Assembly (NCBI GenBank): GCA_016699955.1
Contig: CP064993.1
Location: 630,001 to 662,000 of the forward strand
DNA: 32,000 bases
Source: Candidatus Saccharimonadota bacterium
Lineage (GTDB): Bacteria > Patescibacteriota > Saccharimonadia > Saccharimonadales > UBA4665
Reading direction: 5' to 3'
The notes under the pieces are model-generated. The model worked only from the letters and a program-made list of their open reading frames with translations. It was not told where the DNA came from and made no database searches. Positions 3,001-31,129 of this stretch are shown here, piece after piece. The translations under genes and the position numbers were made by a program. The stretch's first letter is position 1, and each line of letters opens with the position of its first letter.

Positions 3001-3130
3001 TCCAAGGCTCTACCAAAGTAACTCCTCAAGCCTCGGCTAGCACCACACTACTGTGTACTAACGCCGGAGTCATCTCCACCTGTGATGCTGCAGTACTTGC
3101 CCCAACTGCTACTAACTTCATCCAGAACCA
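1..3130 (+). repeat. Copy A of a 3.13-kb dispersed direct repeat (partner 14194-17322); extends beyond the window edge
   Basis: By-eye base alignment: nt 1 corresponds to 14194 and nt 3130 to 17322. Only scattered substitutions and five 1-bp indels differ within the block. Similarity stops after ...ttcatccagaacca (3131 aaatgcc versus 17323 gacagcc). Confidence 0.9.
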
Positions 3131-6044
3131 AAATGCCGGGGCACAGGCTACCAGTAACTTCTGGATTAGTGGTACGGGTAGGGCAAACACTAGCTTCCTG
3201 ACCCCCACTCTTGACACCGCCACCGGTGTTGCCCTAAACATCGGCAATACCAATGCGACCAGCATTGTTATAGGTCAAGCGAGTACCACTGCCAGCGTCA
3301 AGAGCACCCTTTCACTCGATGGCACCGCTTTAAATAATGTACGGCTGTCTTTGTCTGGAACGCTCAGCGCTAGTAACACCTCAGCTATATATGGCATCCA
3401 GAATCAGATGAACTTCAGCCCAACCGGCGGCTCTCTAAGTAGCCTGTACGGCTTTATCAATCTTCCGACTATATCAGGCAGTAACTATGCAATCGGCGAC
3501 GTCTACGCCGCCTTTAACCGCATTGATACGACAGCCGGCTACACCGGTCAGATAACCAATGGGTATGGTCTGCGAATTGATGCCCCAAGTCTTGCCGGTA
3601 GTCCTGGTGCAGGCGTAGCCAAGATTTTAAACTACACAGGTATCTACGTAAATGGTACTAGTAATGGTGGCAACACAAGTAACACAATCAGTAACTACGG
3701 TATACGGCTTCCGGGCAGTTCTGCTACAGCTGGTGCTGGTGGTATACTCAACAACTACACTGCTCACATCACTGTTCCAACAGGCGGGGCCACAGGAACA
3801 ACCAGCAACTACGGCCTTTATTTGACAGGCGCTGGTGGTGCCGCAACGACAAACTACGCCATCTACAATAGTTCTACCGCCGCCAACTACCTCCAGGGCA
3901 ACACCAGTATTGGAACAGCCAGTAACCCAAATGGCTACGTCCTCAACGTCCAAGGCACAGTAGGCGCAAGCGGTGGGGCTATAAACCTAAACGTTAGTAG
4001 CAACTATGCAGTCAACATAGGCACTGGCACAACTAACGTAGCCGTGACCATTGGTAACACTGCCAACACAACAAACTTTGGCTCACGCACAATCAATATC
4101 GGTACGGCTGGTGCAACGAATACAGTTCAGGGGGCAGCACAAACGGCAGCCAATACGACTGGCGATCAGCTAACCATTAAGGGCAGTGCTGGTCTGGGGA
4201 GTGGTAACGGTGGTACCCTACTCCTGTCGGGTGGAGATGCTGGCGGTACCGGAAAGATGGGTCTTGTTAGCTTGAATCCAACTGCATTTGCAGCATCTTC
4301 TACGGTCACACTTTCGGCCACTAACTCTTTGAATACATTGCTTACAAACGGCACAAACAACTACGGAACAGTTCCAGTCAATGCCACTGGTACAGGCTAT
4401 GTATTGACGGTTGATTTGCCTACAGTGACAACTGTTGGTCGTATTTTGTACATCACCGCTGTCAATGGCAGCTCCGACTTTACGCTGTCGCTAGCGGGCA
4501 CCTCAGTTAGCATCAGCATGAAGGCGAATAGTACCGCGACTTTGGTGTACAACGGTACCGGCTGGACAGCAGCTGGTGCCAGTAGCTCAACCGACCTTCA
4601 GGCCGCTTACAACAATACCCTCACTAGCGCTGGTGGTGCAGAGCTGGTCTTGAATGCACCTGGCGGAGCTGCCGACGGTTTGACTATTCGTAATAACGGC
4701 ACGACACCGCTCTCTGGAGGCCTCCTAGAAGTCCAAACAGCTGTTGGTACCAACCTGTTCAGTGTTAATAGCTACGGTACCGAGCTGGCGAGCAACGGTG
4801 GTGCGGAAACGGCTGGAGGGTCAAGCATAACCTTCCCGGCAAGTACATGGTCGGCGCAGAGCACAGCAACGGTTAGCCGCACGGTGACCAGTGGTGAATA
4901 CCAGACGGGTCAGGCAGGTGTGAAAGTTGTAACGACCGGTATATCTCAAGGTGCCAAGAACCAGCTATCGGGTAATCCTGTTACTGGCTCTGTTACGTAT
5001 ACTGTCTCGTTCACTGCCGCTTCGAGTACGGCGGGTCAGAACACAACACCGATAGAGGTCATCTATTCTCCAGACAACGGCACGACTATGACGAACACGT
5101 GTCAAGGCTTTGGCGGTGGTTACACAACCTCACGGCCCATCTCAAACTACACGAGCTACAACTGGACGAAAGTTACCTGTACGGTAACCACCACTGCGAC
5201 CGCAGTGACCACACCACTACTCATAATCCGTCAGACAGATGCGACTTCGCGCACGTTTTACATAGACAACCTCAGTTTCATCCGCAATGACTCCACGACT
5301 CGCCCTGCAAACGTTCAAATCGGGGGTGGTAACACAGGTGGTCAAGTCACTCTCTTTACCTTTGACCGCTCGAGTACAGCCCCACTTGTCTCTGGAAGTG
5401 ATGACCGCTATCTGGGCTCAATGTACTACGACACAACCCTCGGAAACATTCAGTGTTACGAGGCTGACGGATGGGGCGCCTGCGGTAGCGCCCCAGACAA
5501 CATCATTACGCTTACACCGGAGTACTCAAACGCTGTACTTAGCGCTCCGGGTACCATGGGAGGAACGTTTACTGCGACTGGCGTAGGTACGCTGACGGCC
5601 GATTTCTGTTCGAACGAAAACACCGTCCTCCAAGTCAACACCGGCTTCTGCGCGAACCACGTATCTCGCAACTACTACCGCTGGACTTCACCTCAGGCAA
5701 CGGCACAAACCTACAGTATTTATGTCTCGTACAAATTGCCGAGCACCTTCAAAACGTTCTACGACGACAACACTATCAAGCTGACTGGTTTACGTGACCA
5801 CGCAACGAACTCGACTGCCGCTCTCAGTGTATTCAGAAGTACTGGTAGTGCTGTGACTCAGTGTGGGTCAACCACAACCGTGACGACAGCGACCAGTTCA
5901 TGGACAACAACTAGCTTGACGGGCAACGAAACAGGGTGTGGTTTTGCCGCTGGTGATGTTGTGCTGTTCAAAATAAATGTGACGGCACAGAGTAACGCCA
6001 ACGTGTACGTTGAAAACCTAGAGTTCAGGTATACCAATAAGTAA
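1..6044 (+). CDS. Giant fibre-like secreted/surface protein, 5'-truncated by the window edge (2013 codons in window; reading phase starts at nt 3). Contains a parallel beta-helix region, a 2 x 324-aa tandem repeat, a CBM4_9-like module and a beta-rich C-terminal tip.
   Basis: The frame is open from nt 3 to TAA 6042-6044; ORF-track entry 69..6044 is the same frame from an internal TTG. nt 1-3130 are ~99% identical to 14194-17322 of the downstream paralog, whose upstream part carries a signal peptide, so the true start lies left of the window. Degenerate ~22-aa repeats (VSNNTVMVNSAFGIRVSG, VNANTIAGNG, ITNNSLRENG, ITGNSIYDSAG) fit a right-handed parallel beta-helix of PbH1/NosD type. Composition is T/N/G/S/A-rich with very few charged residues. 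The pattern NGGAE..W...FYIDNLSFI at ~4740-5290 resembles CBM4_9. Confidence 0.85.
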   Translation, partial: TGTPGTAQTGHFNISGTGIAAILQGSTSVLTPILDTAAAGTLTIGGTNASSISLADDTVLAANKTITITGGDTTTRNGLTPTEGMVFYDTTTKQLLIYANGKWQADRETATKIVAPSTASQALKDAADYVATGSADQTIINTALTAAAGGKVVLLEGTFTTSDAISIPNNTTLAGNGRGTLVTFSNIATQNKNMITNTDTTNGEGVVVRDLRLDGNKAVNTSGTQHGIYMNNVGFGSSGAGILQGPTVINTWVNNFRSTGIYYYSSSNGTVANNNVLYNVGDGININGSNRVTVSNNTVMVNSAFGIRVSGSLAVTVNANTIAGNGLLAGTNTGGGVLFDGSSSNNAITNNSLRENGASSGTANSSIYIATASNNSITGNSIYDSAGTGQGIHIYDAASVSNYFADNTMVGTGATGIIDNGTTTIWGGQTNASGNFMIQPAGTIELMKNTNIAANQNITFAAGSGNFDQSASSGTFATGTGAVSLNGDTTVASGKNLTVTSGTTALTGTTNINTSGAAATSIGTGTGNNTVGNTTGTLGLTGSTVTVAGNTSINTTGTNTTTIGSVTAGAVSITSNAPSNFTTNTGALTLTSAAATTWSTTAGALTLQGAAGATIKSAAGTTSSDVTVSTGNASAGASGNITIDTGTYTSGTPTVNIGTTVAGAVTIGRAATTTTIQGSTKVTPQASASTTLLCTNAGVISTCDAAVLAPTATNFIQNQTASTQTAGFKIDGTGTAGTLVGTTAVQAPLFDTASAVALNIGTTNATQINLNKNVSIAANQNITFAAGSGNFDQSASSGTFATGTGAVSLNGDTTVASGKNLTVTSGTTALTGTTNINTSGAAATSIGTGTGNNTVGNTTGTLGLTGSTVTVAGNTSINTTGTNTTTIGSVTAGAVSITSNAPSNFTTNTGALTLTSAAATTWSTTAGALTLQGAAGATIKSAAGTTSSDVTVSTGNASAGASGNITIDTGTYTSGTPTVNIGTTVAGAVTIGRAATTTTIQGSTKVTPQASASTTLLCTNAGVISTCDAAVLAPTATNFIQNQNAGAQATSNFWISGTGRANTSFLTPTLDTATGVALNIGNTNATSIVIGQASTTASVKSTLSLDGTALNNVRLSLSGTLSASNTSAIYGIQNQMNFSPTGGSLSSLYGFINLPTISGSNYAIGDVYAAFNRIDTTAGYTGQITNGYGLRIDAPSLAGSPGAGVAKILNYTGIYVNGTSNGGNTSNTISNYGIRLPGSSATAGAGGILNNYTAHITVPTGGATGTTSNYGLYLTGAGGAATTNYAIYNSSTAANYLQGNTSIGTASNPNGYVLNVQGTVGASGGAINLNVSSNYAVNIGTGTTNVAVTIGNTANTTNFGSRTINIGTAGATNTVQGAAQTAANTTGDQLTIKGSAGLGSGNGGTLLLSGGDAGGTGKMGLVSLNPTAFAASSTVTLSATNSLNTLLTNGTNNYGTVPVNATGTGYVLTVDLPTVTTVGRILYITAVNGSSDFTLSLAGTSVSISMKANSTATLVYNGTGWTAAGASSSTDLQAAYNNTLTSAGGAELVLNAPGGAADGLTIRNNGTTPLSGGLLEVQTAVGTNLFSVNSYGTELASNGGAETAGGSSITFPASTWSAQSTATVSRTVTSGEYQTGQAGVKVVTTGISQGAKNQLSGNPVTGSVTYTVSFTAASSTAGQNTTPIEVIYSPDNGTTMTNTCQGFGGGYTTSRPISNYTSYNWTKVTCTVTTTATAVTTPLLIIRQTDATSRTFYIDNLSFIRNDSTTRPANVQIGGGNTGGQVTLFTFDRSSTAPLVSGSDDRYLGSMYYDTTLGNIQCYEADGWGACGSAPDNIITLTPEYSNAVLSAPGTMGGTFTATGVGTLTADFCSNENTVLQVNTGFCANHVSRNYYRWTSPQATAQTYSIYVSYKLPSTFKTFYDDNTIKLTGLRDHATNSTAALSVFRSTGSAVTQCGSTTTVTTATSSWTTTSLTGNETGCGFAAGDVVLFKINVTAQSNANVYVENLEFRYTNK
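1362..3305 (+). repeat. In-frame tandem duplication, 2 units of 972 bp (324 aa), inside fibre gene 1
   Basis: gctaaccagaacattacc recurs at 1362 and 2334, a period of exactly 972 bp. About 790 bp of each unit (1362-2152 versus 2334-3124) are nearly identical; I saw 2 substitutions. The last ~180 bp of the units are homologous but diverged (QTASTQTAGFKIDGTG... versus QNAGAQATSNFWISGTG...). Confidence 0.9.
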
Positions 6045-6600: not shown

Positions 6601-9600
6601 GTGGAAGACAGAAAAATCCAAGCAATGACGCATGGTTTGTCCGAATCTCAGGGAGGGGCGGCTAATGTTCCTCGTAAAACAGTTACACTGCGTTTGGGGC
6701 TTATGCCTCGTGGGATTATTCTGGTTGTTCGTGCTGCGTGGGCTAAGCTGCGGCGTGCAGTGAATAAGCTGGAAAAATACATTCTGCTTAGTTTGCCAAA
6801 ACCATTGGCACGAAAACTCTACTTTTTACGTCCAAAACGTCGAAAACATCCAGTGCTGGCACGGCTAGGCTGGGGTGCGATGGCGCTTCTGATGCTTTTT
6901 GCGGCAAATTCCCAACTGCTGTCGGTGCGACAAAAGGACATAATATACGCGCTTTCACCGCGAGCAGAAGCTTTGCTTGGCAAGGCAAACCAATCATACG
7001 AACAAAGTCTTCGTTTAGATTACAAACAAGGCAGCTATCTTTACAACGATGGATATCGCTCGAGCGCAGAAGTGATTTCTCAGGGTACTCCAAAATTTAG
7101 TGCCTCATTTAGTCTTGATCCAAAGCAAGGCGTCATGGTTACCGATCCTGCCACGGGTGCAAAACTGACGTTTGTGCCAGAGTTTGCACTGCATGAGCCC
7201 CGGCAATCACAAAATCGACTGATCTATCCTGTGGCGGGTAGTACTGCGCAAAAAGTGTATACGGCGCGAGCAGCAAGCATCAAAGAAGATATTATCTTAA
7301 ATCAATACAGTACGGACTCGATGGAATTTAAATACACACTTAAAACCGATACTGGTACAGAGGCGCGGATGGAATCAGACGGCTCGCTTGGCGTATACGG
7401 CGTAAACTCGGCATTGCTTGGGGCGGTTTCGACGGGATCTGAGTCGGATACAAAACTGCTTGAACAGGCGAGGGCAAATGGCGAAAAAAACCGCTTACTC
7501 TTCACTCTGCCCGCTCCTTACATACGGGAGTCGGGTAGAAAAACGAGTCAGGCAAAAGCTTGGTATAGCTTGAATAAAGACGTCCTTACGGTGCACGCAA
7601 CTAACTTACAATCTGCTAACTACCCTCTAACAATCGACCCTACTGTCTATATTGAAACTGCACGGAAGCTCATGAAAGGCAACAACGAAACAAATGTTGA
7701 CTTTGACGTCGATAACGAACTCATACAAAAAAGCCAGACTACCGGGGCTCGCATTGACTACTGGTCTGACACGACAGAAATGAGTAGCGGTGTTTGGGAT
7801 CAAGCGATGGCTTCGGCTGGGGGTTTTGTGTACCGCTCGGGTGGTCGTATAGATCCGACCATGCCGTATGTGGCTAGCCAGCAGGCGACCACACAGGCAA
7901 CAAACAGCCTAAGTTTTACTATGAATATGCCCACGCTGCGTCCAGCAGGTGATTTGTACGTTGCGCTAATTGCAAAAGACGGCGATAACAGAGTATCACC
8001 ACCTGCTGGATGGACGGAGTATGCCGATTTGCAGCAACACGCAGCGTACTACAAAGAAGGAACAGACCAGGGCGGGGGGAATGAAGCCGCGACATACCAG
8101 TGGACGGTTGCAACAACGGCAGAGCAATGGACGGGAATTATTCTGCGGATAAAAAACTTCAATGCCGGCTCACCAGTTAGCGGTACAGCAGGCACTACCA
8201 GCGCAGCCTCTGGAATCCCACAGTTTCCGGCTACAACACCTGGACATGATGCAACTTTGGTAATACGGGCAACAGGCTTTGACGAAGATCAACCCAGCGA
8301 AGCAACATGGTTACCGCTGGGCCATACCCGCGTTTATTCTGGAACAAGTAGCGACACAGACGCCGTCAACAGCGCTGCCCTTGTCGCGACCACTCTAGAT
8401 GTTCCGCCGCTGGCGAGCAATAGCACCGCCGCCGCATCTTTGATAAATGACGGGCTAATCAATGATTCTTACGGTGCATCTTCTATTGCTATTCGGCCGG
8501 CGACTGTCACAGCAGGGTACCAGAACATGCTCGAATGGGCCCAGGTTAACCCCTCTGCGGGAACAATCGATAGCCCCAATCCGGGAGCCGGTACGTGTAG
8601 TGGCTGGTGCACGCAGGCTGTCTATAATTTGCCGGCCAATCGAGTAGGCATGTCGATGTATGCGTACAATGGTTTTCTGTACGCCATTGGCGGGACTACC
8701 GACGGTACCGCTGCAAACGCACAGAACACGGTGTGGGTTGCCAAACTAGGTGCTAACGGCGAGCCGCAGTTGTGGCACCCATCTGGCGGCACGCCAACCT
8801 ATTGGTACGCCTCTACAAACACGCTTCCCGTCGCACTCAGTTATACAGCCATTAGCATTGCCAACAACAGATTATATTTGCTTGGCGGCAGGAACACAGG
8901 TGGCACCAGCGTTGACACGGTTCGGGTTGCCGACGTACTGGCAACTGGTGATATTGGGCCCTGGTCGACAACAGGTATGCAAAACTTGCCAGATGTCCGC
9001 CACGGTCACAGCGTGCAGTTTTATAATGACGTTATGTACCTTATTGGCGGGAATAGCAGTGGCACACTCCGCAACACTGTGTACTTTAGTAAAATGAACG
9101 CCGACGGAACGATGAATTCATGGTCTCAAACAAGCACATTCACGACCGCACGTGCCAGTATGGGTGGCTCCATGACGACTGTTTGGGGTGGGTATGTGTA
9201 TATGGGTGGGGGATGCTCGGGCTTAACTGGTGCCTATTGCAGTACCATTGCAAGCGATGTCCAGCTAGCGAGTATTAATGCCGATGGTTCACTCGCCGAC
9301 TGGAACACTATACTGAATCTCAGTAACCAGCGCATTGGGTACAGTCTTGTGGCGTGGCAAAACGGGCTGTACCGTTTTGGTGGCTGTAACCGGCAAAATA
9401 CGACCACCGGTGTGTGCTATGCGGTACATAGAGATGTTGAATATGGAATAGTCAACCCAGACGGTGATGCGAGCACCGTAAGTAATTCTGAACCAGCCAA
9501 CACGGGCAACTGTGTTACGCCTAACTTTACCGACTGTGACCTTCCTGGTGGTGGTGATGGTGCAGAGCAGGGCGGGCAAATGAGCAACATGGTAGTGATA

Positions 9601-12264
9601 AATAACGGATATATTTATGTGATTGGGGGCTGTACGAGCGTTGCCGCTAACAATGTTTGTGAAACTGCCGGAACGGCGGCCTCAAGCGGCAACGTGCTGT
9701 ACGCTGCCATTGACTCAAGCGGTAACATGACCCGGGTTGGGACATGCGGTGGTACATTTGTGACAAACAGCCTGTGGTGTGTTGACAGTACCAACCGCGT
9801 CAATGGTACCACAGGTATTTCGGCGGGAAGCGCAACCGTGTATAACAACGTAATTTACGTGATAGGCGGGACATCTGGCTCTACGTGGAGCAGTACGGTT
9901 TATAGAGTATCGCTTAACGCAAATGGCACGCTCACCGGCGCTTGGACGACACAAACTTTTGCAAAACTGGCACTTGGTACGTCCAGGGGATACGCCTTCT
10001 CATTTACGCGCAGTAATCCGAATAATGCTGCGACGTACCCCGGAAATCTATATGTGCTGGGCGGCTGCTACATTGCAGGTGGTGGTACCGGGGATGATGG
10101 CATTGGCTGTAGCACCTATTTCACTAAGGTGTACAAGTGCAATATTATGACGAGCGGTGCGCTAGAGGAAGCAAACGCCAATGACTGCGACACAGCAGGA
10201 CAGGTTCAGATAGACGCAGACAATATCAACACCGGCTCTCAAGGACTGGGTCTAATGGCGGGTACGGTGTACGCTAACCGAGTCTATCTGGTTGGGGGTG
10301 CTTGCACAGCGGTTACGTCATACGTCAACCCCACGGATCCGTGTGCGTCAGACACATCGCCTGTTATCAACAACAACGCTCAAAGAAAAGAAACCATCTA
10401 CGCAAAAATCAATGACAGCAACAATATTGTCGATAATGACACAGGGCTATCGGGTGGCTCCTGGAAGTTTACGACTGGTCTCATGAATCCAGTGCGTCGA
10501 CGCGCGGTGGCGTTTGGTTACAATGGATACATATATTCACTTGCAGGATATAGCGGTACGGCGTCTCTCCAGGACCTTCTATTTGCCAAAATTGATGTCA
10601 CTACCGGTGATATGGGGTCGTTTGATAGCTCTGGTGTGGTAGTCACACCGCGCTGGGATTTACGTGCTATTGTTGGAAATGGCTATGTCTATGCAATAGG
10701 GGGCTGTAGTGTCGGTGCCGCACCAGATGGGTGCACATCTATGCAACCAGAAATCCAGACTTTCCAGCTCTACAACAACGACAGTGGAGCGCCAGTAAAC
10801 TACACGGCTCTTTCTGACGACACCTTTGCGGCTGATACCGATAGGTGGGGGGCAAGTGCGGCAGTCTTGAACGGTTATGTATATGTCGCCGGCGGCTGTA
10901 TAAGTGCAACAGACTGTACAAATGCAACGAACAACGTCCAGTATGCTCCCATTAGTGCAAGTGACGGCACCGTTGGCACGTGGGCGAGTGCAACGAACGG
11001 CCTGCCAGCAGACCGAACATGGGGTCAGCTGGAGGTTGCTGGCGGTAACCTGTATTACTTGGGTGGGCAAGACGACACTGCCACAAACGAACAGTCAGCG
11101 GTGTACTATGCCGGTACGTTTACGCTCGGGGATATTACGGCTGCGTGGGGAACCGCTTCTGGTGGTATAGGTGACACCGCGTCACAGGCTGCTCAGCCCC
11201 TGACACGCTTTGGTGCGACCGTCTGGAACGACCGTATTTATGTTGTCGCCGGACTTGATGGCAGCGCGGCAAACACAAACGCGGTATATATAAGTCCGCA
11301 GCTCGCCAGCGGGGGAAATATTGCCGCAGATAGTTGGGTGCAAGATGCTGATGTACCAGATGTCGTGCGCCGTGGTAATACTGTCGTTGCCTATGCCAAC
11401 AACCTCTACAGCGTAGGGGGCAATAATGGTACCCAATATTTCAATGACTCACAATTTACCCAAATCAACAGCGACGGCACTATTGATGCCTGGACGTTTA
11501 GTACGAGTCTACCTGGTGCAATTAGTGAGGCAGAGGGTTTTGCGGCGAACGGCTACCTGTATTTAGTAGCCGGACGTTCAGCCGCAAGTACGTGCGCACC
11601 GAACACACTGGTTACTCCTATAAGCGCAAATACAACAATTGCGAGCGGTAACAACCCAACCGGAATAGGTGAATGGTACGAGACTAATAAACGTTATACG
11701 GGCGACCGGTATGGGTCTGCTGTGGCTTATGTTGGAGGTAAGATTGTAGTTATGGGTGGTGGCTGCACCGCACCGCTTTCCACCGGAAGGCACTTCTATA
11801 CGTCGGTAAAATCGCAGCCGCAAGTTGCCAAGTATTCCCGTATGATAGATACTGATACTGATGTATTTCCTACAAAATGGCTGGTGAATGGACTCGATAA
11901 CTCCACCGGTGCACGCTGGTATATGCGCTTTCGAAGCATGACGGATATAGACGGAGACGCAACTGATTGTGTAGTAAATATGACAACGTGGGGTCAGGAA
12001 ACAAACTTTGGTGTTGTCACGCTAGGCAACCCAGAAACCTTTGTAGCTCGTGATGGTAGCGGCACAAACACAAACTGTGCTCGGTACTATTACTTCTCCT
12101 TAAATATCGATAGTTCTCAGGCGTTTGGTTACCCAGAAGACGTCAACCGCGGGCCAACCATCGCTGACTTGAGCTTATTTTTTACCGCAGATCCAAGCAA
12201 GCGCCTGCTGCACGGCAAAACTTTTACTGGTGGCGAACAACAACCGCTCGATACGCCGTTCTAA
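6601..12264 (+). CDS. Giant membrane-anchored Kelch-like beta-propeller protein (1887 aa, about 17-18 blades, probably three propellers)
   Basis: Single 5.66-kb ORF. A basic N-terminus is followed by a hydrophobic helix (LARLGWGAMALLMLFAA) that looks like a signal anchor. Every ~55-65 aa there is a hydrophobic-Y-hydrophobic-x-G-G strand followed by A-x-I-x-x-(D/N)-G-x-x-x-x-W. Examples: FLYAIGG, RLYLLGG, VMYLIGG, YVYMGGG, LYRFGG, YIYVIGG, VIYVIGG, LYVLGG, VYLVGG, YIYSLAG, YVYAIGG, YVYVAGG, LYYLGG, IYVVAG, LYSVGG, YLYLVAG, IVVMGG. The start is uncertain (GTG 6601 or ATG 6625). Confidence 0.85.
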   Translation: MEDRKIQAMTHGLSESQGGAANVPRKTVTLRLGLMPRGIILVVRAAWAKLRRAVNKLEKYILLSLPKPLARKLYFLRPKRRKHPVLARLGWGAMALLMLFAANSQLLSVRQKDIIYALSPRAEALLGKANQSYEQSLRLDYKQGSYLYNDGYRSSAEVISQGTPKFSASFSLDPKQGVMVTDPATGAKLTFVPEFALHEPRQSQNRLIYPVAGSTAQKVYTARAASIKEDIILNQYSTDSMEFKYTLKTDTGTEARMESDGSLGVYGVNSALLGAVSTGSESDTKLLEQARANGEKNRLLFTLPAPYIRESGRKTSQAKAWYSLNKDVLTVHATNLQSANYPLTIDPTVYIETARKLMKGNNETNVDFDVDNELIQKSQTTGARIDYWSDTTEMSSGVWDQAMASAGGFVYRSGGRIDPTMPYVASQQATTQATNSLSFTMNMPTLRPAGDLYVALIAKDGDNRVSPPAGWTEYADLQQHAAYYKEGTDQGGGNEAATYQWTVATTAEQWTGIILRIKNFNAGSPVSGTAGTTSAASGIPQFPATTPGHDATLVIRATGFDEDQPSEATWLPLGHTRVYSGTSSDTDAVNSAALVATTLDVPPLASNSTAAASLINDGLINDSYGASSIAIRPATVTAGYQNMLEWAQVNPSAGTIDSPNPGAGTCSGWCTQAVYNLPANRVGMSMYAYNGFLYAIGGTTDGTAANAQNTVWVAKLGANGEPQLWHPSGGTPTYWYASTNTLPVALSYTAISIANNRLYLLGGRNTGGTSVDTVRVADVLATGDIGPWSTTGMQNLPDVRHGHSVQFYNDVMYLIGGNSSGTLRNTVYFSKMNADGTMNSWSQTSTFTTARASMGGSMTTVWGGYVYMGGGCSGLTGAYCSTIASDVQLASINADGSLADWNTILNLSNQRIGYSLVAWQNGLYRFGGCNRQNTTTGVCYAVHRDVEYGIVNPDGDASTVSNSEPANTGNCVTPNFTDCDLPGGGDGAEQGGQMSNMVVINNGYIYVIGGCTSVAANNVCETAGTAASSGNVLYAAIDSSGNMTRVGTCGGTFVTNSLWCVDSTNRVNGTTGISAGSATVYNNVIYVIGGTSGSTWSSTVYRVSLNANGTLTGAWTTQTFAKLALGTSRGYAFSFTRSNPNNAATYPGNLYVLGGCYIAGGGTGDDGIGCSTYFTKVYKCNIMTSGALEEANANDCDTAGQVQIDADNINTGSQGLGLMAGTVYANRVYLVGGACTAVTSYVNPTDPCASDTSPVINNNAQRKETIYAKINDSNNIVDNDTGLSGGSWKFTTGLMNPVRRRAVAFGYNGYIYSLAGYSGTASLQDLLFAKIDVTTGDMGSFDSSGVVVTPRWDLRAIVGNGYVYAIGGCSVGAAPDGCTSMQPEIQTFQLYNNDSGAPVNYTALSDDTFAADTDRWGASAAVLNGYVYVAGGCISATDCTNATNNVQYAPISASDGTVGTWASATNGLPADRTWGQLEVAGGNLYYLGGQDDTATNEQSAVYYAGTFTLGDITAAWGTASGGIGDTASQAAQPLTRFGATVWNDRIYVVAGLDGSAANTNAVYISPQLASGGNIAADSWVQDADVPDVVRRGNTVVAYANNLYSVGGNNGTQYFNDSQFTQINSDGTIDAWTFSTSLPGAISEAEGFAANGYLYLVAGRSAASTCAPNTLVTPISANTTIASGNNPTGIGEWYETNKRYTGDRYGSAVAYVGGKIVVMGGGCTAPLSTGRHFYTSVKSQPQVAKYSRMIDTDTDVFPTKWLVNGLDNSTGARWYMRFRSMTDIDGDATDCVVNMTTWGQETNFGVVTLGNPETFVARDGSGTNTNCARYYYFSLNIDSSQAFGYPEDVNRGPTIADLSLFFTADPSKRLLHGKTFTGGEQQPLDTPF

Positions 12265-13065: not shown

Positions 13066-13452
13066 CGAAGGCTAATGGGGGTATTTGGTAAGTGTAGAGC
13101 GTAGGCTTAGTGACAGTATTTCTTGTGCAAATTGGGTCAAATCCAGAACAAAATAACGGAGTAATATAAACAACAAAAATTAAGCATATTGTTCAGGTAT
13201 TTCCTACAACACTAGCAGTACATTTATCTGTAAAATCTTATGCTCAGAGTATTATTTCACGTAGTATTAATTACTACACGATACTATATTATGTCTACTT
13301 ATGTGCACGAGTAGTCTGAAAGATTGCAAAGAAACTGCGAAAAGGGGAAAATAAGTGAAGTACTGAACCAAACACAAAAAATTGTTCAATACAAAAACTA
13401 AAACAAAAAAATATGCCAAATCACATACCGAACTCCGTACTGTTTGTGCGTA

Positions 13453-13481
13453 CCCTCTGGCTCTCCGCCAAGAGGGGTTTT
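13453..13481 (+). promoter_or_regulatory. Terminator/attenuator-like hairpin in the leader of fibre gene 2
   Basis: ccctctgg (13453-13460) pairs with ccaagaggg (13468-13476, one bulged A) and is followed by gttttgtgg. It lies ~70 nt upstream of the likely start ATG 13551, inside a ~480-bp AT-rich gap. Confidence 0.3.
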
Positions 13482-13550
13482 GTGGTATTTGGCCGCCGTA
13501 AACACTTGTATGCTCTGAAAAGCTGGTCACATTCGTGCATTCTTTGGCTC

Positions 13551-14885
13551 ATGCAACGATTTTCTTTTCGAGTATCGAAGCAAGGTGTACAGGTAGCCCT
13601 CGCTGTTTCTTTGCTCCTCCTACCCCTATTTTTCCTCACGCGTGGGTACACAGGCGTAGAACACGCCTATGCCGCCACTTCCGACAACCTGAACTTCCAA
13701 GCTCGCCTAGAGAACTCTGCCGGAGCCATCGCTGCCGATGGCTTCTACAACCTCCAGTTCAAGCTCTACGACGCTGCCAGTGGTGGTACCCTCCTCTGGA
13801 CTGAAACCTACGACTACAACGGTGGTACCCCTGACCGTCGTGTTAGGGTAGCCAACGGCTACGTCACCGTCAACCTAGGCTCTATCACCAGCTTCCCTGG
13901 CAGCATGCCCTGGGATCAGCAGCTTTACCTCACCATGAACGTTGGCGGTACTGGCACCTCAGCCTCATGGGACGGAGAAATGAACCCACGCCTCAAACTC
14001 ACTGCCGTACCCTATGCCTTCAACGCCAAGACAGCCAGTCAGCTTGTTACCACCAGCGGTGTTTTCATCTCCACCCTGGCTATCCAATCCCCGACAGGTG
14101 GAAACCAAACCCTCCACCTCCAAAATCAGGGAGCAGCCGGAACCTACAACCTCCTAACCGCACCATCGCGCAGTGATGGCTACATCAAGCTGCAGACTGG
14201 GACACCAGGAACCGCTCAGACCGGGCACTTCAACATCTCTGGCACAGGTATAGCTGCCATCTTGCGGGGCTCAACCAGCGTCCTCACCCCCATCCTAGAC
14301 ACTGCCGCCGCTGGCACCCTAACCATTGGCGGTACCAATGCTTCTTCTATTTCTCTGGCAGATGACACCGTCCTGGCTGCCAACAAGACCATCACCATCA
14401 CAGGCGGCGATACAACTACTCGCAACGGGCTGACTCCAACCGAAGGTATGGTATTCTACGACACTACCACCAAACAACTTCTAATCTACGCCAATGGCAA
14501 GTGGCAGGCTGACAGAGAAACGGCTACAAAGATCGTAGCCCCGAGTACTGCTAGCCAAGCCCTGAAAGATGCTGCCGACTATGTCGCAACAGGTAGCGCC
14601 GATCAAACCATCATTAACACCGCTCTTACCGCTGCCGCTGGTGGCAAAGTTGTTCTACTCGAAGGAACATTTACTACCAGTGATGCTATCTCCATACCAA
14701 ACAACACGACACTAGCTGGTAACGGTCGTGGCACCTTAGTTACCTTTAGTAACATTGCAACTCAGAACAAGAACATGATCACCAACACAGATACTACCAA
14801 TGGTGAAGGCGTGGTTGTCCGTGATCTCCGCCTCGATGGTAACAAAGCCGTCAACACCAGTGGTACTCAGCATGGTATAATATGA
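13551..14885 (+). pseudogene. Fibre gene 2 fragment A (signal peptide, N-terminal module, first part of beta-helix A)
   Basis: ORF-track entry 13413..14885. It ends at a TGA created by loss of one base in the tatatat run present in gene 1 (ggtatatatatgaac versus ggtataatatgaac). Confidence 0.6.
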
Positions 14886-14919
14886 ACAACGTCGGTTTGG
14901 CTCAAGCGGTGCCGGCATA

Positions 14920-15648
14920 TTGCAAGGACCAACCGTCATTAACACTTGGGTCAACAACTTCCGTTCTACTGGTATCTACTACTACAGCAGCTCAAACGGT
15001 ACCGTTGCCAACAACAATGTCCTTTACAACGTCGGTGACGGTATCAACATCAACGGGAGTAACCGCGTTACCGTCAGTAACAACACCGTCATGGTGAACT
15101 CAGCCTTCGGTATCCGTGTCAGTGGGTCACTGGCTGTTACCGTGAATGCCAACACTATTGCCGGCAATGGCCTTCTGGCTGGCACGAACACCGGTGGTGG
15201 TGTCTTGTTTGACGGCAGCAGCTCCAACAACGCCATTACCAACAACAGCCTCCGTGAGAACGGTGCCAGCAGTGGTACGGCCAACAGTAGTATTTACATT
15301 GCCACTGCTAGCAATAACAGTATTACTGGTAACTCTATCTACGACTCGGCTGGTACCGGTCAGGGTATCCACATCTACGACGCTGCCTCAGTCTCTAACT
15401 ACTTTGCCGACAACACCATGGTTGGTACTGGTGCTACTGGCATCATAGACAACGGCACTACTACCATATGGGGTGGTCAAACCAATGCCAGCGGCAACTT
15501 CATGATACAGCCAGCTGGAACTATTGAGCTGATGAAGAACACTAACATTGCCGCTAACCAGAACATTACCTTTGCAGCTGGGTCTGGTAACTTCGACCAA
15601 TCTGCTAGTAGTGGTACTTTGCTACTGGCACGGGTGCCGTCAGCCTGA
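14920..15648 (+). pseudogene. Fibre gene 2 fragment B (rest of beta-helix A)
   Basis: ORF-track entry 14920..15648. Its protein is identical to gene 1 residues QGPTVINTWVNN...FDQSASSGT until the CC>C deletion at ~15617. Confidence 0.6.
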
Positions 15649-17498
15649 ACGGAGATACAACTGTAGCTAGTGGTAAGAACCTGACTGTCACCAGTGGCAC
15701 CACAGCACTAACCGGCACTACCAACATAAACACCTCGGGTGCCGCTGCCACCAGCATCGGTACTGGCACTGGCAATAACCAGCGTTGGTAACACCACAGG
15801 TACTCTCGGCCTGACTGGTAGCACAGTAACAGTTGCTGGTAATACTAGTATTAATACAACAGGTACTAACACAACCACCATAGGCTCTGTCACTGCTGGT
15901 GCAGTTAGTATTACATCCAATGCCGCTAGCAACTTCACCACCAACACAGGTGCCCTCACCCTCACCAGTGCCGCTGCTACCACCTGGAGCACAACAGCCG
16001 GTGCTCTAACCCTGCAAGGTGCAGCTGGTGCGACCATTAAGTCTGCTGCTGGTACGACATCTAGTGATGTAACTGTCTCCACTGGCAATGCCAGCGCTGG
16101 CGCCAGTGGTAACATCACCATAGATACTGGTACCTACACCAGCGGTACCTCCGACTGTGAACATCGGTACTACAGTTGCCGGCGCAGTCACCATCGGCCG
16201 AGCTGCTACTACCACTACTATCCAAGGCTCTACCAAAGTAACTCCTCAAGCCTCGGCTAGCACCACACTACTGTGTACTAACGCCGGAGTCATCTCCACC
16301 TGTGATGCTGCAGTACTTGCCCCAACTGCTACTAACTTCATCCAGAACCAGACAGCCTCTACCCAAACAGCTGGCTTTAAGATAGATGGCACCGGTACAG
16401 CCGGCACATTAGTCGGTACAACAGCTGTCCAAGCACCGCTCTTTGATACTGCTTCGGCCGTAGCCCTAAACATCGGCACTACCAATGCCACCCAGATTAA
16501 TCTCAACAAGAATGTATCCATTGCTGCTAACCAGAACATTACCTTTGCAGCTGGGACTGGTAGCTTTGACCAGTCTGCTAGTAGTGGTACCTTTGCTACT
16601 GGCACGGGTGCCGTCAGCCTGAACGGAGATACAACTGTAGCTAGTGGTAAGAACCTGACTGTCACCAGTGGCACCACAGCACTAACCGGCACTACCAACA
16701 TAAACACTTCGGGTGCTGCTGTCACCAGCATCGGTACTGGCACTGGTAATAACAGTGTTGGTAACACCACAGGTACTCTCGGCCTGACTGGTAGTACAGT
16801 AACAGTTGCTGGTAATACTAGTATTAATACAACAGGTACTAACACAACCACCATAGGCTCTGTCACTGCTGGTGCAGTTAGTATTACATCCAATGCCGCT
16901 AGCAACTTCACCACCAACACAGGTGCCCTGACCCTCACCAGCGCCGCTGCTACCACCTGGAGCACAACAGCCGGTGCCCTAACCCTGCAAGGTGCAGCTG
17001 GTGCGACCATTAAGTCTGCTGCTGGTACGACATCTAGTGATGTAACTGTCTCCACTGGCAATGCCAGCGCTGGCGCCAGTGGTAACATCACCATAGATAC
17101 TGGTACCTACACCAGCGGTACTCCGACTGTGAACATCGGTACTACAGTTGCCGGCGCAGTCACCATCGGCCGAGCTGCTACTACCACTACTATCCAAGGT
17201 TCTACCAAAGTAACTCCTCAAGCCTCGGCTAGCACCACACTGCTGTGTACTAACGCCGGAGTCATATCCACCTGTGATGCTGCAGTACTTACTCCAACTG
17301 CTACTAACTTCATCCAGAACCAGACAGCCTCTACCCAAACAGCTGGCTTTAAGATAGATGGCACCGGTACAGCCGGCACCTTAGTCGGTACAACAGCTGT
17401 CCAAGCACCACTCTTTGATACCGCTTCGGCCATAGCCCTAAACATCGGCACTACCAATGCGACTAGCATAAACATCAACCAGAACACCGTCCTCGCTG
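15553..17498 (+). repeat. In-frame tandem duplication (2 units, 972 bp nominal) inside fibre gene 2
   Basis: gctaaccagaacattacc occurs at 15553 and 16526. The period is 973 bp because of a net +1 indel. Unit 2 carries several substitutions relative to unit 1 (GTGSFDQ versus GSGNFDQ, AAVTSIG versus AAATSIG, NNSVGN versus NNTVGN). Confidence 0.85.
15739..16260 (+). pseudogene. Fibre gene 2 fragment C (tandem repeat unit 1, middle part)
   Basis: ORF-track entry 15739..16260. The homologous reading frame is valid only between the +1 indels at ~15782 and ~16148. Confidence 0.55.
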
Positions 17499-17845
17499 CC
17501 GATAAATCTATCGTCATCACAGGAGGAGCCACCCGTCCAGCTAGTCCAGTAGAGGGCATGGTGTTCTATGATACTGCTACGAAACAACTTCTAACCTACG
17601 CTAATGGCAAGTGGCAAGCTGATGGCAAAGAAGCCATCATCGTCGCTGCTAGTGACTCCAGTGACGCCGACAAGGCTTCAGCTGACTACGTCGGAGATGG
17701 CAACACTGCTGCCGCCGCTGACGGTGACCAAGTCCAGATAAACGCTGCTCTGACCGCTGCCGACCCAGCTGGATCAGGCGAAGACTGGCAAGGTCGTCCT
17801 GCTCGCTGGTACCTACACCCTAGACGCAAGCGTATCTATTCCTAA
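16157..17845 (+). pseudogene. Fibre gene 2 fragment D (end of unit 1, unit 2, start of the second head/beta-helix module)
   Basis: ORF-track entry 16157..17845. Homology to the ...GKVVLL.G....IPNNTTLAG module is lost after ~17783 and is recovered in another frame. Confidence 0.6.
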
Positions 17846-18004
17846 TAACACACCCTAGCCGGTGTCGGTAACGCCACGAGCATAACTATCCCGAACTCTC
17901 TGAACGTCAACTTTAGCGCCATCGTCAACACCGACCAAACTACCGGCACCGGCGTTACTATCCAAGACCTAAGACTCGAGGGCAACAAAGCTAACCAATC
18001 CGGT

Positions 18005-20395
18005 GTGATCGCTATGGTAGGTGTTGACTTCAACAACATGGGCGGTGGCTCCGGCTCCGGTGCTCGCCAGGGTGCCAAGATACTGCATGTCCGGTCGAAT
18101 AGTTGGTACTACAATGCAAGTAGTAACTGTCAGGGCGGTCATGGCATTTGCTTGCGCAACAGCTCCAACAACACACTTACAGGCAACACTGTACAGGAAA
18201 ATGGTGGCCCCGGCATCAACTTGGAAAGTTCCCACAACAACACCCTTACCGGCAACACCGCGCAGGGCAATAACGGAGGCATTGGTCTCAATAATGCCGA
18301 CAACAATACTGTCACCGGTAATACTACGCAGGGGAATAGCGGCAGAGGTATCGTCAGCAGCTTTAGCTCCAGCAATACCTTCTCTGGCAACACCATGCAG
18401 GGGAATAGTAACGGCGGTATCTCTCTCTCCCTCGACTCTAACAGCACGGTATCCGGCAACACTATCCACGACAACGGTGGAGCGCTCACTAACAATGGCA
18501 TATCTATGGGCACTTCCGATACTAACACCATCATCGGAAACACTATCACGGATACCGGCTGCAGTACCAACTGCTATGCCATTGACATTAGCGACTCAGG
18601 TTCGGACAACAACTATCTCGCCGGGAACGTCTTCAGCACTACTTCTGGCACTGCCATCATCAACGACATTGGTACCGGCACGATCTACGCCGGTCAAGCC
18701 ATGACAGCCGGTGGTCTTGACATCCGCTTCAAACAAGCCGCCTCCGCTTCTGCCTTCCAAATCCAGAGCGGTGCAATAGACTACCTTACCGCCGACACAA
18801 GTGGTAACAAGATCCAAATAGGTTCCGCCACCACTGACGCCAATGCCATTCTCTTCGGCCTAGACAGCTACAACAACGCAACTGACCCCACTGGCTACAA
18901 CGGAGCCATGTACTACAACAGTAATACCAGTAAGTTCCGGTGTTATGAAGGCGGTATCTGGACAAACTGTGCCGGTGCTGCCGCTAGTGCCATCCAGAAC
19001 CAGTATGCTGGGACTCAGACTGCAAACTTTAACATACAAAGCGCCGCAGCCGCCCAGGTAGTCGCTGTTATCCAAGGCGCCGCTAGTCAAAGCGTGGATA
19101 TTCTCCAGGTAAAAGTTTCGGGCGGTAACATACCGTTTCGTGTCAGTTCTACTGGTGACGTGACTATGGCTAGAAACACACTGTATATGAATACGACCAC
19201 AACCAATGCACAGCGTATATACATTTCTGGCAACATAAATTCCGGCGCTGTTTCGCAGTACGGTATACAAAATGAGCCAATCTTCCTACCAACGGCTGGA
19301 GCTGCGGGTGGGAATATATTTGGTTTTACTAACACGGCAATGCTTGCAACCAGTAGCGTAAATATTGGTCAGATATTTGGATCTGTAACGGGCGTTTCAA
19401 CCAACGCAGATTACACAGGAACCCTTACGGCTGCACACGGCTTAAATATTCAAAATCCATCTATGTCCGGCAGTAAAGCAGCGAACTACTACGGTATTTC
19501 TATAAATGGTGTAACAAACAACGGTGGCAATACGTCGGGCACAATTAAGAACAACCAGTTATTCATAGGAAACACGACGGTAGGTGCAGGGGCAGGCGGC
19601 ATACTTTACAACGTTGGAGCGCGTATTGTAATCCCTTCTGGGTCTGGAGGCACCACTCATAACTCCGGTCTAGTTATAGCCGATAGCACCGCTTCTGTCT
19701 CTGGCACATGGTCCCTGTACAACAGTAGCGCCCAAGTAAGTTACTTTGCTAGTAACGTAACCATTGGTACTTTGCTAACAGCCGACGTTACGGCAGGTAA
19801 CGTTCAGATAGGATCTGCTACAACTGATGCTACTGCAAAACAGTTCGTGTTAGACAGCTACAACAACTCAACTGACCCAACAGGAGTTACGGGCGGCATG
19901 TACTACAACAGTGCACTTGCTGTGTTCCGCCGCTATGAAAACGGGGCTTGGAAGGACTGTTTAACGCGCCACCTCGTGACACTTGGTTCAGATATAACCA
20001 ACAACAACGCAACCGCCAACACCATTGCTAATGTTACAGGTCTCAGTTTTGCGGTTACATCTGGTAGAACGTATCGCTTCCATGCCAATATTGTCTATAC
20101 GGCTGCTGCTACCACTACAGGCTCTCGCTGGAGCGTCAATGGGCCTGCGACGTCGCTACTTAGCTACGCCACGCGCTACGGAACTACTGCCGCGACGGAG
20201 GCCTTTACCTATGCATCGGCGTACGACAACCCGGCGGCAAGCAACACCGATTCGCCAAGTACTGCGGGCAACACTGCAATTATAGAAGGAATTGTCACTC
20301 CTTCGGCCGGTGGAACTCTGACTGTCAGATTTGCCTCAGAGGTGTCAAGTTCGGCAATTGTAGCAAAAGCCGGCAGTACTATTGAGTGGTGGTAG
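18005..20395 (+). pseudogene. Fibre gene 2 fragment E (beta-helix B plus paralog-specific C-terminal cassette); the frame is open from 17858
   Basis: Contains ~22-aa beta-helix repeats (NNTLTGNTVQENGGPGINLESSH, NNTLTGNTAQGNNGGIGLNNAD, NNTVTGNTTQGNSGRGIV, NTFSGNTMQGNSNGGISL, STVSGNTIHDNGG). Two GxMYYNS...Y/CYE.G.W..C motifs follow, then a C-terminal beta-rich domain ending ...AKAGSTIEWW. Confidence 0.65.
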
Positions 20396-20923: not shown

Positions 20924-21036
20924 GCTTCAATAGTACCGAAAACACGTGGTTTTGGGAAACTATGTACAGAACATGGCACCGGCGAGGTGTTAGCCCGCAG
21001 CTATGTGCTCCGCATAGCCCCTTTTAACAGAGTAGC

Positions 21037-21045
21037 TGTGGATAA
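21037..21045 (-). promoter_or_regulatory. Perfect DnaA-box 9-mer (TGTGGATAA, the complement of TTATCCACA)
   Basis: Exact match seen in the sequence. Weaker relatives are TGTGCACAA (~21077) and TTATCCAGC (21572-21580). An A-rich tract lies at 21158-21200 and parAB is adjacent. A single perfect box is expected ~0.25 times by chance in 32 kb. Confidence 0.25.
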
Positions 21046-21091
21046 CTGGGGTAAATTAACTACTTTGAGTAAAAAATGTGCACAAAAAGTA

Positions 21092-21120
21092 TTGCAATTG
21101 TTTTAACACTAGCGCATACT
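21092..21120 (+). promoter_or_regulatory. Candidate sigma70-type promoter (TTGCAA-N17-CATACT)
   Basis: The -35 element ttgcaa is at 21092-21097, followed by a 17-nt spacer and the -10 element catact at 21115-21120. It would drive a ~100-nt transcript ending at the 21193-21229 terminator. Confidence 0.25.
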
Positions 21121-21126
21121 TGGACA

Positions 21127-21229
21127 CAGATTTCCCGCGTACTTTGCGGAGGGATCAAAAACTTCAAACCAAAAAAAACAAAAACGTATTCCTAAAAAGC
21201 AGGCACTCTCGCAAGGCCTGCTTTTTTTA
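21127..21229 (+). ncRNA. Candidate small RNA (~100 nt): 5' hairpin, CA-rich unstructured linker, intrinsic terminator
   Basis: A cccgc/gcgg(a)g hairpin lies at ~21134-21150. The linker is caaaaacttcaaaccaaaaaaaacaaaaacgtattcc, followed by a strong terminator. The flanking genes are divergent, so neither needs this terminator. I recognised no family; alternatively the terminator serves a minus-strand RNA. Confidence 0.25.
21193..21229. terminator. Strong bidirectional rho-independent terminator in a divergent intergenic region
   Basis: agcaggc (21198-21204) pairs with gcctgct (21216-21222). The stem is flanked by an A5 run 5' and a T8 run 3', so it reads as stem plus U-tract on both strands. 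Confidence 0.7.
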
Positions 21230-31060: not shown

Positions 31061-31129
31061 CCCCGGGGCGGCCCGGGCGGCGGGCGGGGGGGGCGGCGGC
31101 CCGCGGGGGGGGGGGAGGGGGGGGGGGGG
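31061..31129 (+). repeat. 69-nt GC-only low-complexity tract with G8, G11 and G13 runs
   Basis: The sequence is ccccggggcggcccgggcggcgggcggggggggcggcggcccgcggggggggggaggggggggggggg, with a single A at 31116. It is unlike anything else in the window and lies between the divergent rpmE and rpsB genes. Confidence 0.9.

Follow-up and report, generated by a model that had tools for sequence, protein, structure and literature searches.

Results

Two giant modular genes share a long direct repeat

The 32,000-nucleotide stretch analysed here (the window) belongs to a Candidatus Saccharimonadota bacterium (GenBank assembly GCA_016699955.1, contig CP064993.1, positions 630,001 to 662,000, forward strand) and carries two giant genes for modular proteins, gene 1 and gene 2, with a giant Kelch-repeat gene between them (Table 1). 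Gene 1 encodes, in order, the linker L0, head A, beta-helix A, the series P1-L1-P2-L2 (P denoting a 268-residue domain and L a linker), a shaft and a tandem tip resembling carbohydrate-binding modules (CBMs). Gene 2 opens with an N-terminal signal/anchor segment and a further domain (13413-14193) and continues through L0, head A, beta-helix A, P1', L1', P2', L1'', head B and beta-helix B to a tip of its own. The 56-residue linker (…QT..F.I.GTG…LDTA…L.IG.TNA…) starts directly after the motif IQNQ and stands before each domain.

Local alignment and self-BLAST matched window positions 1-3130, in gene 1, to 14194-17322, in gene 2, far beyond chance expectation. This is the sole long direct repeat in the self-comparison of the window, and its copies lie in direct orientation, 14.2 kb apart. 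A preliminary description made from the sequence alone had reported a 3.13-kb direct repeat of about 99% identity that ends abruptly and matches base for base, and had proposed a pairwise alignment of the two genes. That alignment recovers the repeat and its sharp end at ~98.8% identity, not a base-for-base match: the copies differ by 33 substitutions and 5 single-base insertions or deletions (indels). The substitutions are of all types, with 24 of the 33 synonymous and 24 of the 33 at third codon positions. Because most of them are synonymous or in third positions, the two copies are distinct sequences shaped by selection rather than one sequence with read errors.

At its 3' end the repeat stops within a few bases. 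Compared in colinear register by 50-nt windows, the two genes are 100, 98, 96 and 96% identical up to position 3130, and 24, 26, 42 and 36% thereafter. The final bases common to both copies are TTCATCCAGAACCA, coding NFIQNQ. IQNQ codons (ATCCAGAACCA) are found at 2148, 3120, 16340, 17312 and 18992, with a variant at 3396, and the break (3130/17322) is the boundary between a P domain and a linker: L2 comes next in gene 1, another L1 in gene 2. The preliminary description was thus right to place an abrupt loss of identity at a recurrent IQNQ junction; the drop, from 96-100% to ~25%, comes exactly after TTCATCCAGAACCA. The 5' end is of another kind. Gene 1 enters from outside the window, gene 2 has its ATG at 13413, and, because the window cuts gene 1, the start of the repeat at base 1 is the window edge only; since gene 2 starts at 13413, the repeat may reach ~780 nt or more upstream of the window.

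Inside the repeat, the 972-bp internal repeat noted previously does exist and corresponds to one P+L unit, with copies 96-99.6% identical. The claim that the long repeat covers both units holds less well, as the second unit of gene 1 is incomplete: it matches the first over 804 of 972 bp only (2327-3130), because L2 is a diverged linker. In gene 2 the second unit is complete (16519-17484), continuing for 162 nt as an extra linker (17323-17484) before head B. This linker, L1'', loses identity to L1 (2159-2326) by degrees, with 100, 97.5, 92.5, 75 and 45% in successive 40-nt steps, and so grades into head B, the start of which is 74% identical in DNA to that of head A over ~140 nt. P1 and P2 differ at 3 positions, P1 and P1' at 7, and P2' from the others at 19-24. 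The site patterns of the four P units are mosaic: five sites group the units by gene, one groups them by position, and most of the rest, 18, are private to P2'. The second head and beta-helix B that had been proposed for gene 2 are supported by profile match and alignment.

The distal part of gene 2 has an internal repeat of its own, a 108-nt element (18815-18922 and 19805-19912, 75% identity) that codes the recurring motif ...IGSATTDA..LDSYNN.TDPTG..G.MYYNS....FR.YE.G.W..C.; a similar YYDTT...CYEADGWGACG stands in the gene 1 tip. The motif may be a conserved neck or junction element before the terminal domains.

High-identity blocks recur at a conserved locus

A one-genome-per-species scan yielded 28 related loci, nearly all in metagenome-assembled genomes (MAGs) of Saccharibacteria/Saccharimonadales, the best with at most 57% amino-acid identity over the main match. 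A protein search with gene 1 retrieved 223 homologues at E <= 1e-20, of 1.1-3.5 thousand residues and none closer than ~60-70%, with source names, where given, of Saccharibacteria/Saccharimonadales or annotations that include "parallel beta-helix repeat protein", "carbohydrate binding domain-containing protein" and "S-layer family protein". Full-length homologues among them, matching in N-terminal domain, head, beta-helix and C-terminal 560-residue tip, define by homology an unnamed Saccharibacteria family of giant parallel beta-helix/CBM proteins to which the giant window proteins belong.

The order gene 1, Kelch gene, gene for a ~260-residue protein, gene 2 recurs in at least nine Saccharibacteria genomes (loci L003, L008, L009/L010, L011, L012, L014, L016/L002, L019 and L023), so the gene pair is old and predates these species. 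In CP064992.1 (L016/L002), parA and parB lie downstream of the locus too, and CAZPVS010000003.1 (L029) has an extended version in which three giant paralogues alternate with two Kelch genes. Kelch proteins with an N-terminal hydrophobic segment, 1.4-2.2 thousand residues long, lie between giant beta-helix proteins in many Saccharibacteria (seen in L003, L008, L009/L010, L011, L014, L019, L023 and L029), followed in most of these genomes by the ~260-residue protein with its hydrophobic segment.

Conservation along the two genes follows position at some modules and genome at others. The gene 1 tip is a positional orthologue across species, with 61-89% amino-acid identity, and forms the C-terminus in 89 of 120 retrieved homologues of very different lengths. 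The layout of conserved stem and variable tip with module swapping, as first described, is therefore reversed for gene 1: the tip is conserved by position, and it is the stems that vary, with homogenisation inside any one genome. The gene 2 body does vary among genomes; the gene 2 tip is orthologous to that of CP064992.1, and the body is different in CAYROK010000005.1 and L008. In L003, the closest relative, gene 2 passes from the N-terminal region straight to a B-type head and beta-helix, without P units, and P units and A-type heads are found in gene-1-type proteins with a CBM-like tip. Two- or three-headed proteins occur naturally in relatives (CP064992.1 gene 1, L020 and L025), so that a chimeric build alone does not indicate mis-assembly.

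Blocks of high identity between paralogues of one genome were found in four other genomes: 582 bp at 92.6% in CAYROK010000005.1, with a 435-nt core at 99%; 443 bp at 94% in the JBGAVA MAG (L005 versus L003); 1666 bp at 96%, covering head and beta-helix, in CP064992.1; and 1361 bp at 96.8%, gap-free, in CAZPVS010000003.1. In the window the block measures at least 3130 bp at 98.8%. The blocks sit at different places in each genome, which argues for independent events. The N-terminal domain of the family (gene 2 residues 76-215; window 13413-14192) is unusually conserved, with 77-82% amino-acid identity across species, and its region is the preferred conversion block in two of the other genomes; between genomes, the DNA of the N-terminal region is only 70-89% identical. 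Paralogues thus group with their own genome, but gene order and tips follow position, a pattern that points to recurrent gene conversion.

Table 1. Features of the two giant genes and of the DNA between them, in window coordinates.
Feature	Position	Strand	Basis or remark
Gene 1	3..6044	+	2013 visible codons, uninterrupted; 5' end beyond window; giant secreted protein
Gene 2	13413..20395	+	~2326 codons if repaired; 7 single-base indels interrupt reading frame
Repeat copy 1, within gene 1	1..3130	+	5' limit is window edge; alignment to 14194-17322
Repeat copy 2, within gene 2	14194..17322	+	alignment; identity ~25% beyond 17322 in colinear register
L0, diverged L1 homologue	3-170	+	module alignment
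Head A and right-handed beta-helix A	172..1354	+	motif GMVFYDTTTKQLLIYANGKWQ; Beta_helix E 1e-14, NosD, weak Pect-lyase_RHGA_epim
Gene 2 copy of head A and beta-helix A	14365-15545	+	within repeat copy 2
P1, 268-aa Gly/Thr/Ala/Ser/Asn-rich domain with NFIQNQ end	1355..2158	+	self-BLAST, unit alignment
Other P copies	P2 2327-3130; P1' 15546-16350; P2' 16519-17322	+	unit alignment
L1, 56-aa linker (TASTQTAGFKIDGTG...LNIGTTNAT...)	2159..2326	+	module alignment
Other L1 copies	L1' 16351-16518; L1'' 17323-17484	+	module alignment
L2, linker after the break in gene 1	3131..3298	+	protein visibly like L1; DNA with 62 differing aligned positions and 30 gap columns
Gene 1 tip, 560 aa, two CBM-like beta-sandwich domains	4362..6041	+	amino-acid conservation by position; AF2 model and Foldseek
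Head B and beta-helix B, gene 2	17484..19000	+	Beta_helix E 1e-32; 50% amino-acid identity to L003 gene 2 residues 439-958
Gene 2 distal part and tip	19000..20395	+	orthologous to CP064992.1 gene 2 tip, 73-78% amino-acid identity
Five indels inside the repeat	14879..16148	+	missing at 14879/14880, 14895/14896, 15616/15617; extra at 15779, 16148
Two indels in unique head B sequence	17774..17852	+	+1 near 17774-17785, -1 near 17851; three-frame reading and alignment to L003 gene 2
Giant Kelch-repeat gene	6601..12264	+	Kelch families; between repeat copies; 77% amino-acid identity to L003
261-aa protein, one hydrophobic segment	12280..13065	+	between Kelch gene and gene 2; syntenic

Domain content suggests a possible role at surface glycans

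With Pfam Beta_helix (PF13229; cut-off 25.9) the match reaches 55 bits for beta-helix A and 113 bits for beta-helix B, and both also match NosD (PF05048). The beta-helix modules, and no other parts, also match a tail-spike family weakly (phrog_7458; E 6e-6 and 6e-5). For the gene 1 tip, an AlphaFold model of moderate quality (predicted local distance difference test, pLDDT, 64.5 overall and 70-90 in the two sandwiches) resembles CBM22, CBM16 and CBM4 in Foldseek (E 2e-9 to 1e-4, target TM-score 0.55-0.68). A sequence profile search of the window protein gave no CBM profile in the tip at E <= 1, a sequence search of the PDB with gene 1 matched nothing, and homologues of gene 1 carry precomputed PF02018 matches. 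The predicted fold thus lends support to the CBM-like character first proposed for this tip.

Gene 2 has a signal-peptide-like segment at its N-terminus and its own start codon, and no LPXTG anchor was seen at the C-terminus of either protein. No Pfam family was found for the N-terminal domain (gene 2 residues 76-215); against NCBIfam Bdello_MAT_N (NF053851) it scores 16.7 bits (cut-off 60, E = 0.005) over 28 residues only. Transposon sequencing in a cultivated Saccharibacterium found glycan-binding and glycan-degrading envelope proteins to be essential for epibiotic growth (PMC10633639). On the strength of that result and of the domain evidence, the proteins of gene 1 and gene 2 would bind or cut glycans of the host-cell surface.

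Gene 2 as assembled is interrupted by clustered single-base indels

Seven single-base indels break the frame of gene 2, five in the repeat and two just past it, all missed in an earlier reading of the sequence. Three bases of copy 1, at window positions 687, 704 and 1426, have no counterpart in copy 2, which in turn carries one more base at each of 15779 and 16148; each of these changes falls in a run of 1-4 nt or in a short repeat, including a TA repeat. The pair in head B creates an in-frame TAATAA stop (17843-17848). What remains are open reading frames at 13413-14885, 14920-15648, 15739-16260, 16157-17845 and 18005-20395. Gene 1 is uninterrupted over its 2013 visible codons, as are the Kelch gene over 1887 codons, the last 2.5 kb of gene 2 and the downstream housekeeping genes, and 7-8-nt homopolymers in other window genes are intact. 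In relatives, gene 2 is an intact long reading frame (at least 1821 residues in L003 and 1711 in CAYROK010000005.1).

Homopolymer error of the Oxford Nanopore type was rejected as an assembly-wide property, given the intact 7-8-nt homopolymers and the location of the gene 2 indels in 1-4-nt runs. Within positions 84-1588 the copies show three indels and no substitution, a pattern seldom expected of natural decay and more suggestive of consensus error. If 10-30% of spontaneous mutations are indels, the chance of three indels before any substitution is ~0.1-4%, which favours consensus error. We put recent decay of gene 2 and local consensus error at roughly even odds. The existence of the repeat is independent of whether the indels are real. 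A frameshifted gene 2 should not be labelled a pseudogene unless reads support it, and repeats this large are places where MAG assemblies break or err.

In the 'complete' MAG CP064992.1 (683917-719402, L016/L002), frame changes interrupt both giant paralogues, the Kelch gene between them and even parA, which suggests a generally indel-prone assembly and calls for caution when it is used as a reference for pseudogene calls.

The locus lies in a housekeeping region of the chromosome

Genes in the right half of the window code for ParA, ParB, signal peptidase I (lepB-like), LCP, HtrA, PrmC, release factor RF1 (prfA) and the ribosomal proteins L31 (rpmE) and S2 (rpsB). The window is Saccharibacteria (TM7) chromosome adjoining parAB, not phage; the label 'fibre genes' in the preliminary description, with its implication of phage, does not survive the housekeeping neighbours and the Saccharibacteria MAGs among which the relatives are found. 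Transfer RNA and Rfam scans of the window found nothing, and a promoter and terminator scan of 12.9-21.9 kb gave no excess over the shuffled expectation. The window holds no inverted repeats of at least 60 nt, no recombinase domain and no reverse transcriptase. Invertible or shufflon-type tip switching (Gin/Cin, Rci) was rejected for want of such inverted repeats and of a recombinase in the window. A diversity-generating retroelement was rejected as well, as no reverse transcriptase is present and the substitutions, of all types, are mostly synonymous changes in third positions.

Two non-coding features were also seen. In the 0.9-kb gap 5' of parA, a ~190-nt stretch (21036-21225) aligns at 72% identity with its positional counterpart in CP064992.1 (L002 16608-16806) and has no Rfam match even at E <= 1. 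Between the divergent rpmE and rpsB lies a 67-nt extremely G-rich tract (31063-31129, with G8, G11 and G13 runs) in a genome of ~48% GC; it could be a poly-G artefact of two-colour Illumina chemistry or a bad join, or a real G-quadruplex-prone element.

Discussion

The repeat, the blocks in other genomes and the conserved gene order are best accounted for, we believe, by recurrent gene conversion between old paralogues, which in this genome was recent and ended at the conserved 56-residue linker; we regard this as the probable history of the locus. Two old paralogous genes for giant modular secreted proteins flank the Kelch gene, each coding a chain of tailspike-like head with right-handed beta-helix, P domain, shaft and putative glycan-binding tip in which a homologous linker precedes each domain. 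A recent non-reciprocal homologous recombination, presumably of the RecA type, would have copied the 5' stem of gene 1 into gene 2. The copied tract would extend from the N-terminal region across head A, beta-helix A and the P-L units, with at least 3.1 kb visible and probably ~4 kb in all, and would have been placed before gene 2's own head B and beta-helix B, inserting ~3.3 kb. The tract would end where homology ends, at the linker modules, which would explain both the sharp IQNQ break between gene 1 and gene 2 and the graded decay in L1''. The mosaic of common sites in the four P units may reflect additional exchange, both inside each gene and from one gene to the other. The transfer was likely from gene 1 to gene 2, because gene 2 of L003 is without P units and these are typical of gene-1-type proteins.

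The preliminary description had left the choice between recent gene conversion and duplication. Conversion at a recurrent junction is the better reading, and the duplication half fares poorly. That a tandem segmental duplication recently made gene 2 from gene 1, with a new 3' end acquired later, would suit the near-identical 5' parts in direct orientation 14.2 kb apart; it is very improbable, however, in view of at least nine divergent genomes in which the two genes flank the Kelch gene and the 261-residue gene, and of a gene 2 tip with an orthologue in CP064992.1 (73-78% identity). Recent duplication was rejected on this conserved synteny. The description had further proposed that the repeats might delete or amplify the 14 kb between them. 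This could happen in principle, a 3.1-kb direct repeat of 99% identity being a good recombination substrate. A deletion would leave one hybrid gene and lose the gene 1 tip, the Kelch gene and the 261-residue gene, and the synteny in at least nine genomes suggests that such products do not persist.

Several points weigh against conversion as the source of the repeat. The case is built on assembled sequence; the 5' end of gene 1 lies outside the window, and hence the full tract and its 5' limit are out of view; and no genome of the same species was found for comparison, exact-protein look-ups of the Kelch and 261-residue proteins having turned up no record, an exact junction 25-mer having no match in Joint Genome Institute (JGI) metagenome contigs and a protein database that includes JGI holding no relative closer than ~70%. 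All seven indels lie in gene 2, against none in ~25 kb of neighbouring coding sequence, and by this clustering gene 2 stands out from the assembly as locally abnormal; the run at 84-1588 has three indels and no substitution. The clustering and this run also speak for an assembly artefact. In that case the assembler would have mis-traversed the repeat to give the second stem, or joined a strain variant of gene 1 into the gene 2 locus, and consensus calling or polishing would have introduced the indels, which gather in one repeat copy. It is common for polishers to leave such errors in a single copy when they assign every short read to one place only. The G-rich tract hints at some sequence artefacts in the contig, and the short-read MAG contigs of relatives break inside these genes (L003 and L005). 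We nevertheless consider an artefact unlikely. The differences between the copies are mostly synonymous, with ~18 substitutions private to P2', and P2' runs directly on into L1'' and head B; a distinct P-L unit therefore truly stands before head B or belongs to another strain. The gradual decay of L1'' resembles a natural conversion boundary and does not look like switching at an exact repeat; unique sequence contains two of the indels; the intact 7-8-nt homopolymers of other genes speak against a generally indel-prone assembly; and four other genomes have the same kind of block.

The frameshifts can also be read as part of programmed variation, with gene 2 a silent donor or acceptor cassette in the manner of pilE/pilS, MgPa or vls that swaps modules with an expressed gene 1 and so varies host recognition. 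Gene 2 as assembled is non-functional yet carries the gene 1 stem, from which it differs with a strong bias towards synonymous changes; five genomes show blocks of modules moving from one paralogue to another; and the gene 2 body differs among genomes, all of which would fit. It has, however, its own start codon and signal sequence and is no promoterless, 5'-truncated cassette; it is an intact long reading frame in L003 and CAYROK010000005.1; there is a single partner instead of a cassette array; the window has no recombinase, reverse transcriptase or inverted repeats; and the tips, which would bear specificity, are not the part exchanged here. Programmed variation of this type thus appears improbable. 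Least credible is the idea of a tail-fibre locus, of a prophage or phage, whose receptor-binding tips can be swapped; we see hardly any chance of it: the head and beta-helix modules do match a tail-spike PHROG weakly (E 6e-6 and 6e-5), and YxDT...W motifs, which we take to recall fibre proteins, offer a lead only, but the window has housekeeping neighbours and no phage genes, the relatives occupy the same chromosomal locus adjoining parAB, and a tblastn search of 50,697 phage records with the gene 2 tip gave no match. The phage reading was rejected on this context and because the gene 2 tip found no counterpart in those records.

Gene conversion, if it is the correct reading, is at work here as ordinary concerted evolution of paralogous genes for repeat-rich surface proteins, a mechanism already well known; our literature search found no description of this locus or of its conversion in Saccharibacteria. 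The most useful by-product is the conserved locus of giant proteins and Kelch proteins as a candidate host-interaction module. Beyond type IV pili, host recognition and attachment by Saccharibacteria and other ultrasmall epibionts are largely unknown, and the genes of this locus, whose modules are exchanged between paralogues, are reasonable candidates for host-range determinants. We can propose only tentatively, and with some doubt, that the locus is a host-recognition module in which two or three giant tailspike/CBM proteins alternate with giant Kelch proteins next to parAB and whole domains are exchanged by conversion at a conserved 56-residue 'IQNQ' linker dedicated to this. Were this true, each lineage would carry its own set of fibres aimed at glycans, the locus would parallel, in cells, the mosaicism of phage tail fibres and the Bdellovibrio fibres discussed below, and the window would have caught a very recent exchange of 3-4 kb.

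Comparison with known systems

In Helicobacter pylori, babA and babB are paralogous adhesin genes at fixed loci, with near-identical segments and a differing binding part; non-reciprocal recombination between them yields chimeras, and one copy is often out of frame. The likeness lies in paired paralogous surface genes with near-identical segments. The genes described here differ in being 6-7 kb long and built of repeated modules, in sharing a single conserved cluster with a Kelch gene, at a spacing of 14 kb, and in belonging to an epibiotic Saccharibacterium; they have no dinucleotide-repeat phase switch. The alpha C/Rib, Esp and Bap families of Gram-positive bacteria show variation in tandem-repeat copy number together with concerted evolution. 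They share with the present genes long, near-identical in-frame units (here 972 bp) that are homogenised within a gene and vary in number between genes and genomes, whereas here units are also exchanged between two separate genes, and no LPXTG anchor was seen.

Mosaic tail fibres and tailspikes of phages, in which the N-terminal part is conserved and distal modules can be exchanged, are similar in their modular build, in breakpoints at conserved junctions and in the tailspike-like beta-helix; the present genes, by contrast, are chromosomal and cellular, with no virion genes in the window, and the gene 2 tip is unmatched in phage records. In Bdellovibrio bacteriovorus, the mosaic adhesive trimer (MAT) proteins form a family of chimeric fibres, one member of which binds glycans of the prey surface (PMC10769870). 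A bacterium living on other bacteria with a family of long surface proteins makes this the closest functional analogy, offered without a claim of membership. The link through Bdello_MAT_N is sub-threshold (16.7 bits against 60). The proteins of the present locus are two to three times longer and combine right-handed beta-helices of the pectate-lyase type with CBM-like tips, and in gene 1, unlike in MAT, the tip is conserved, not swapped.

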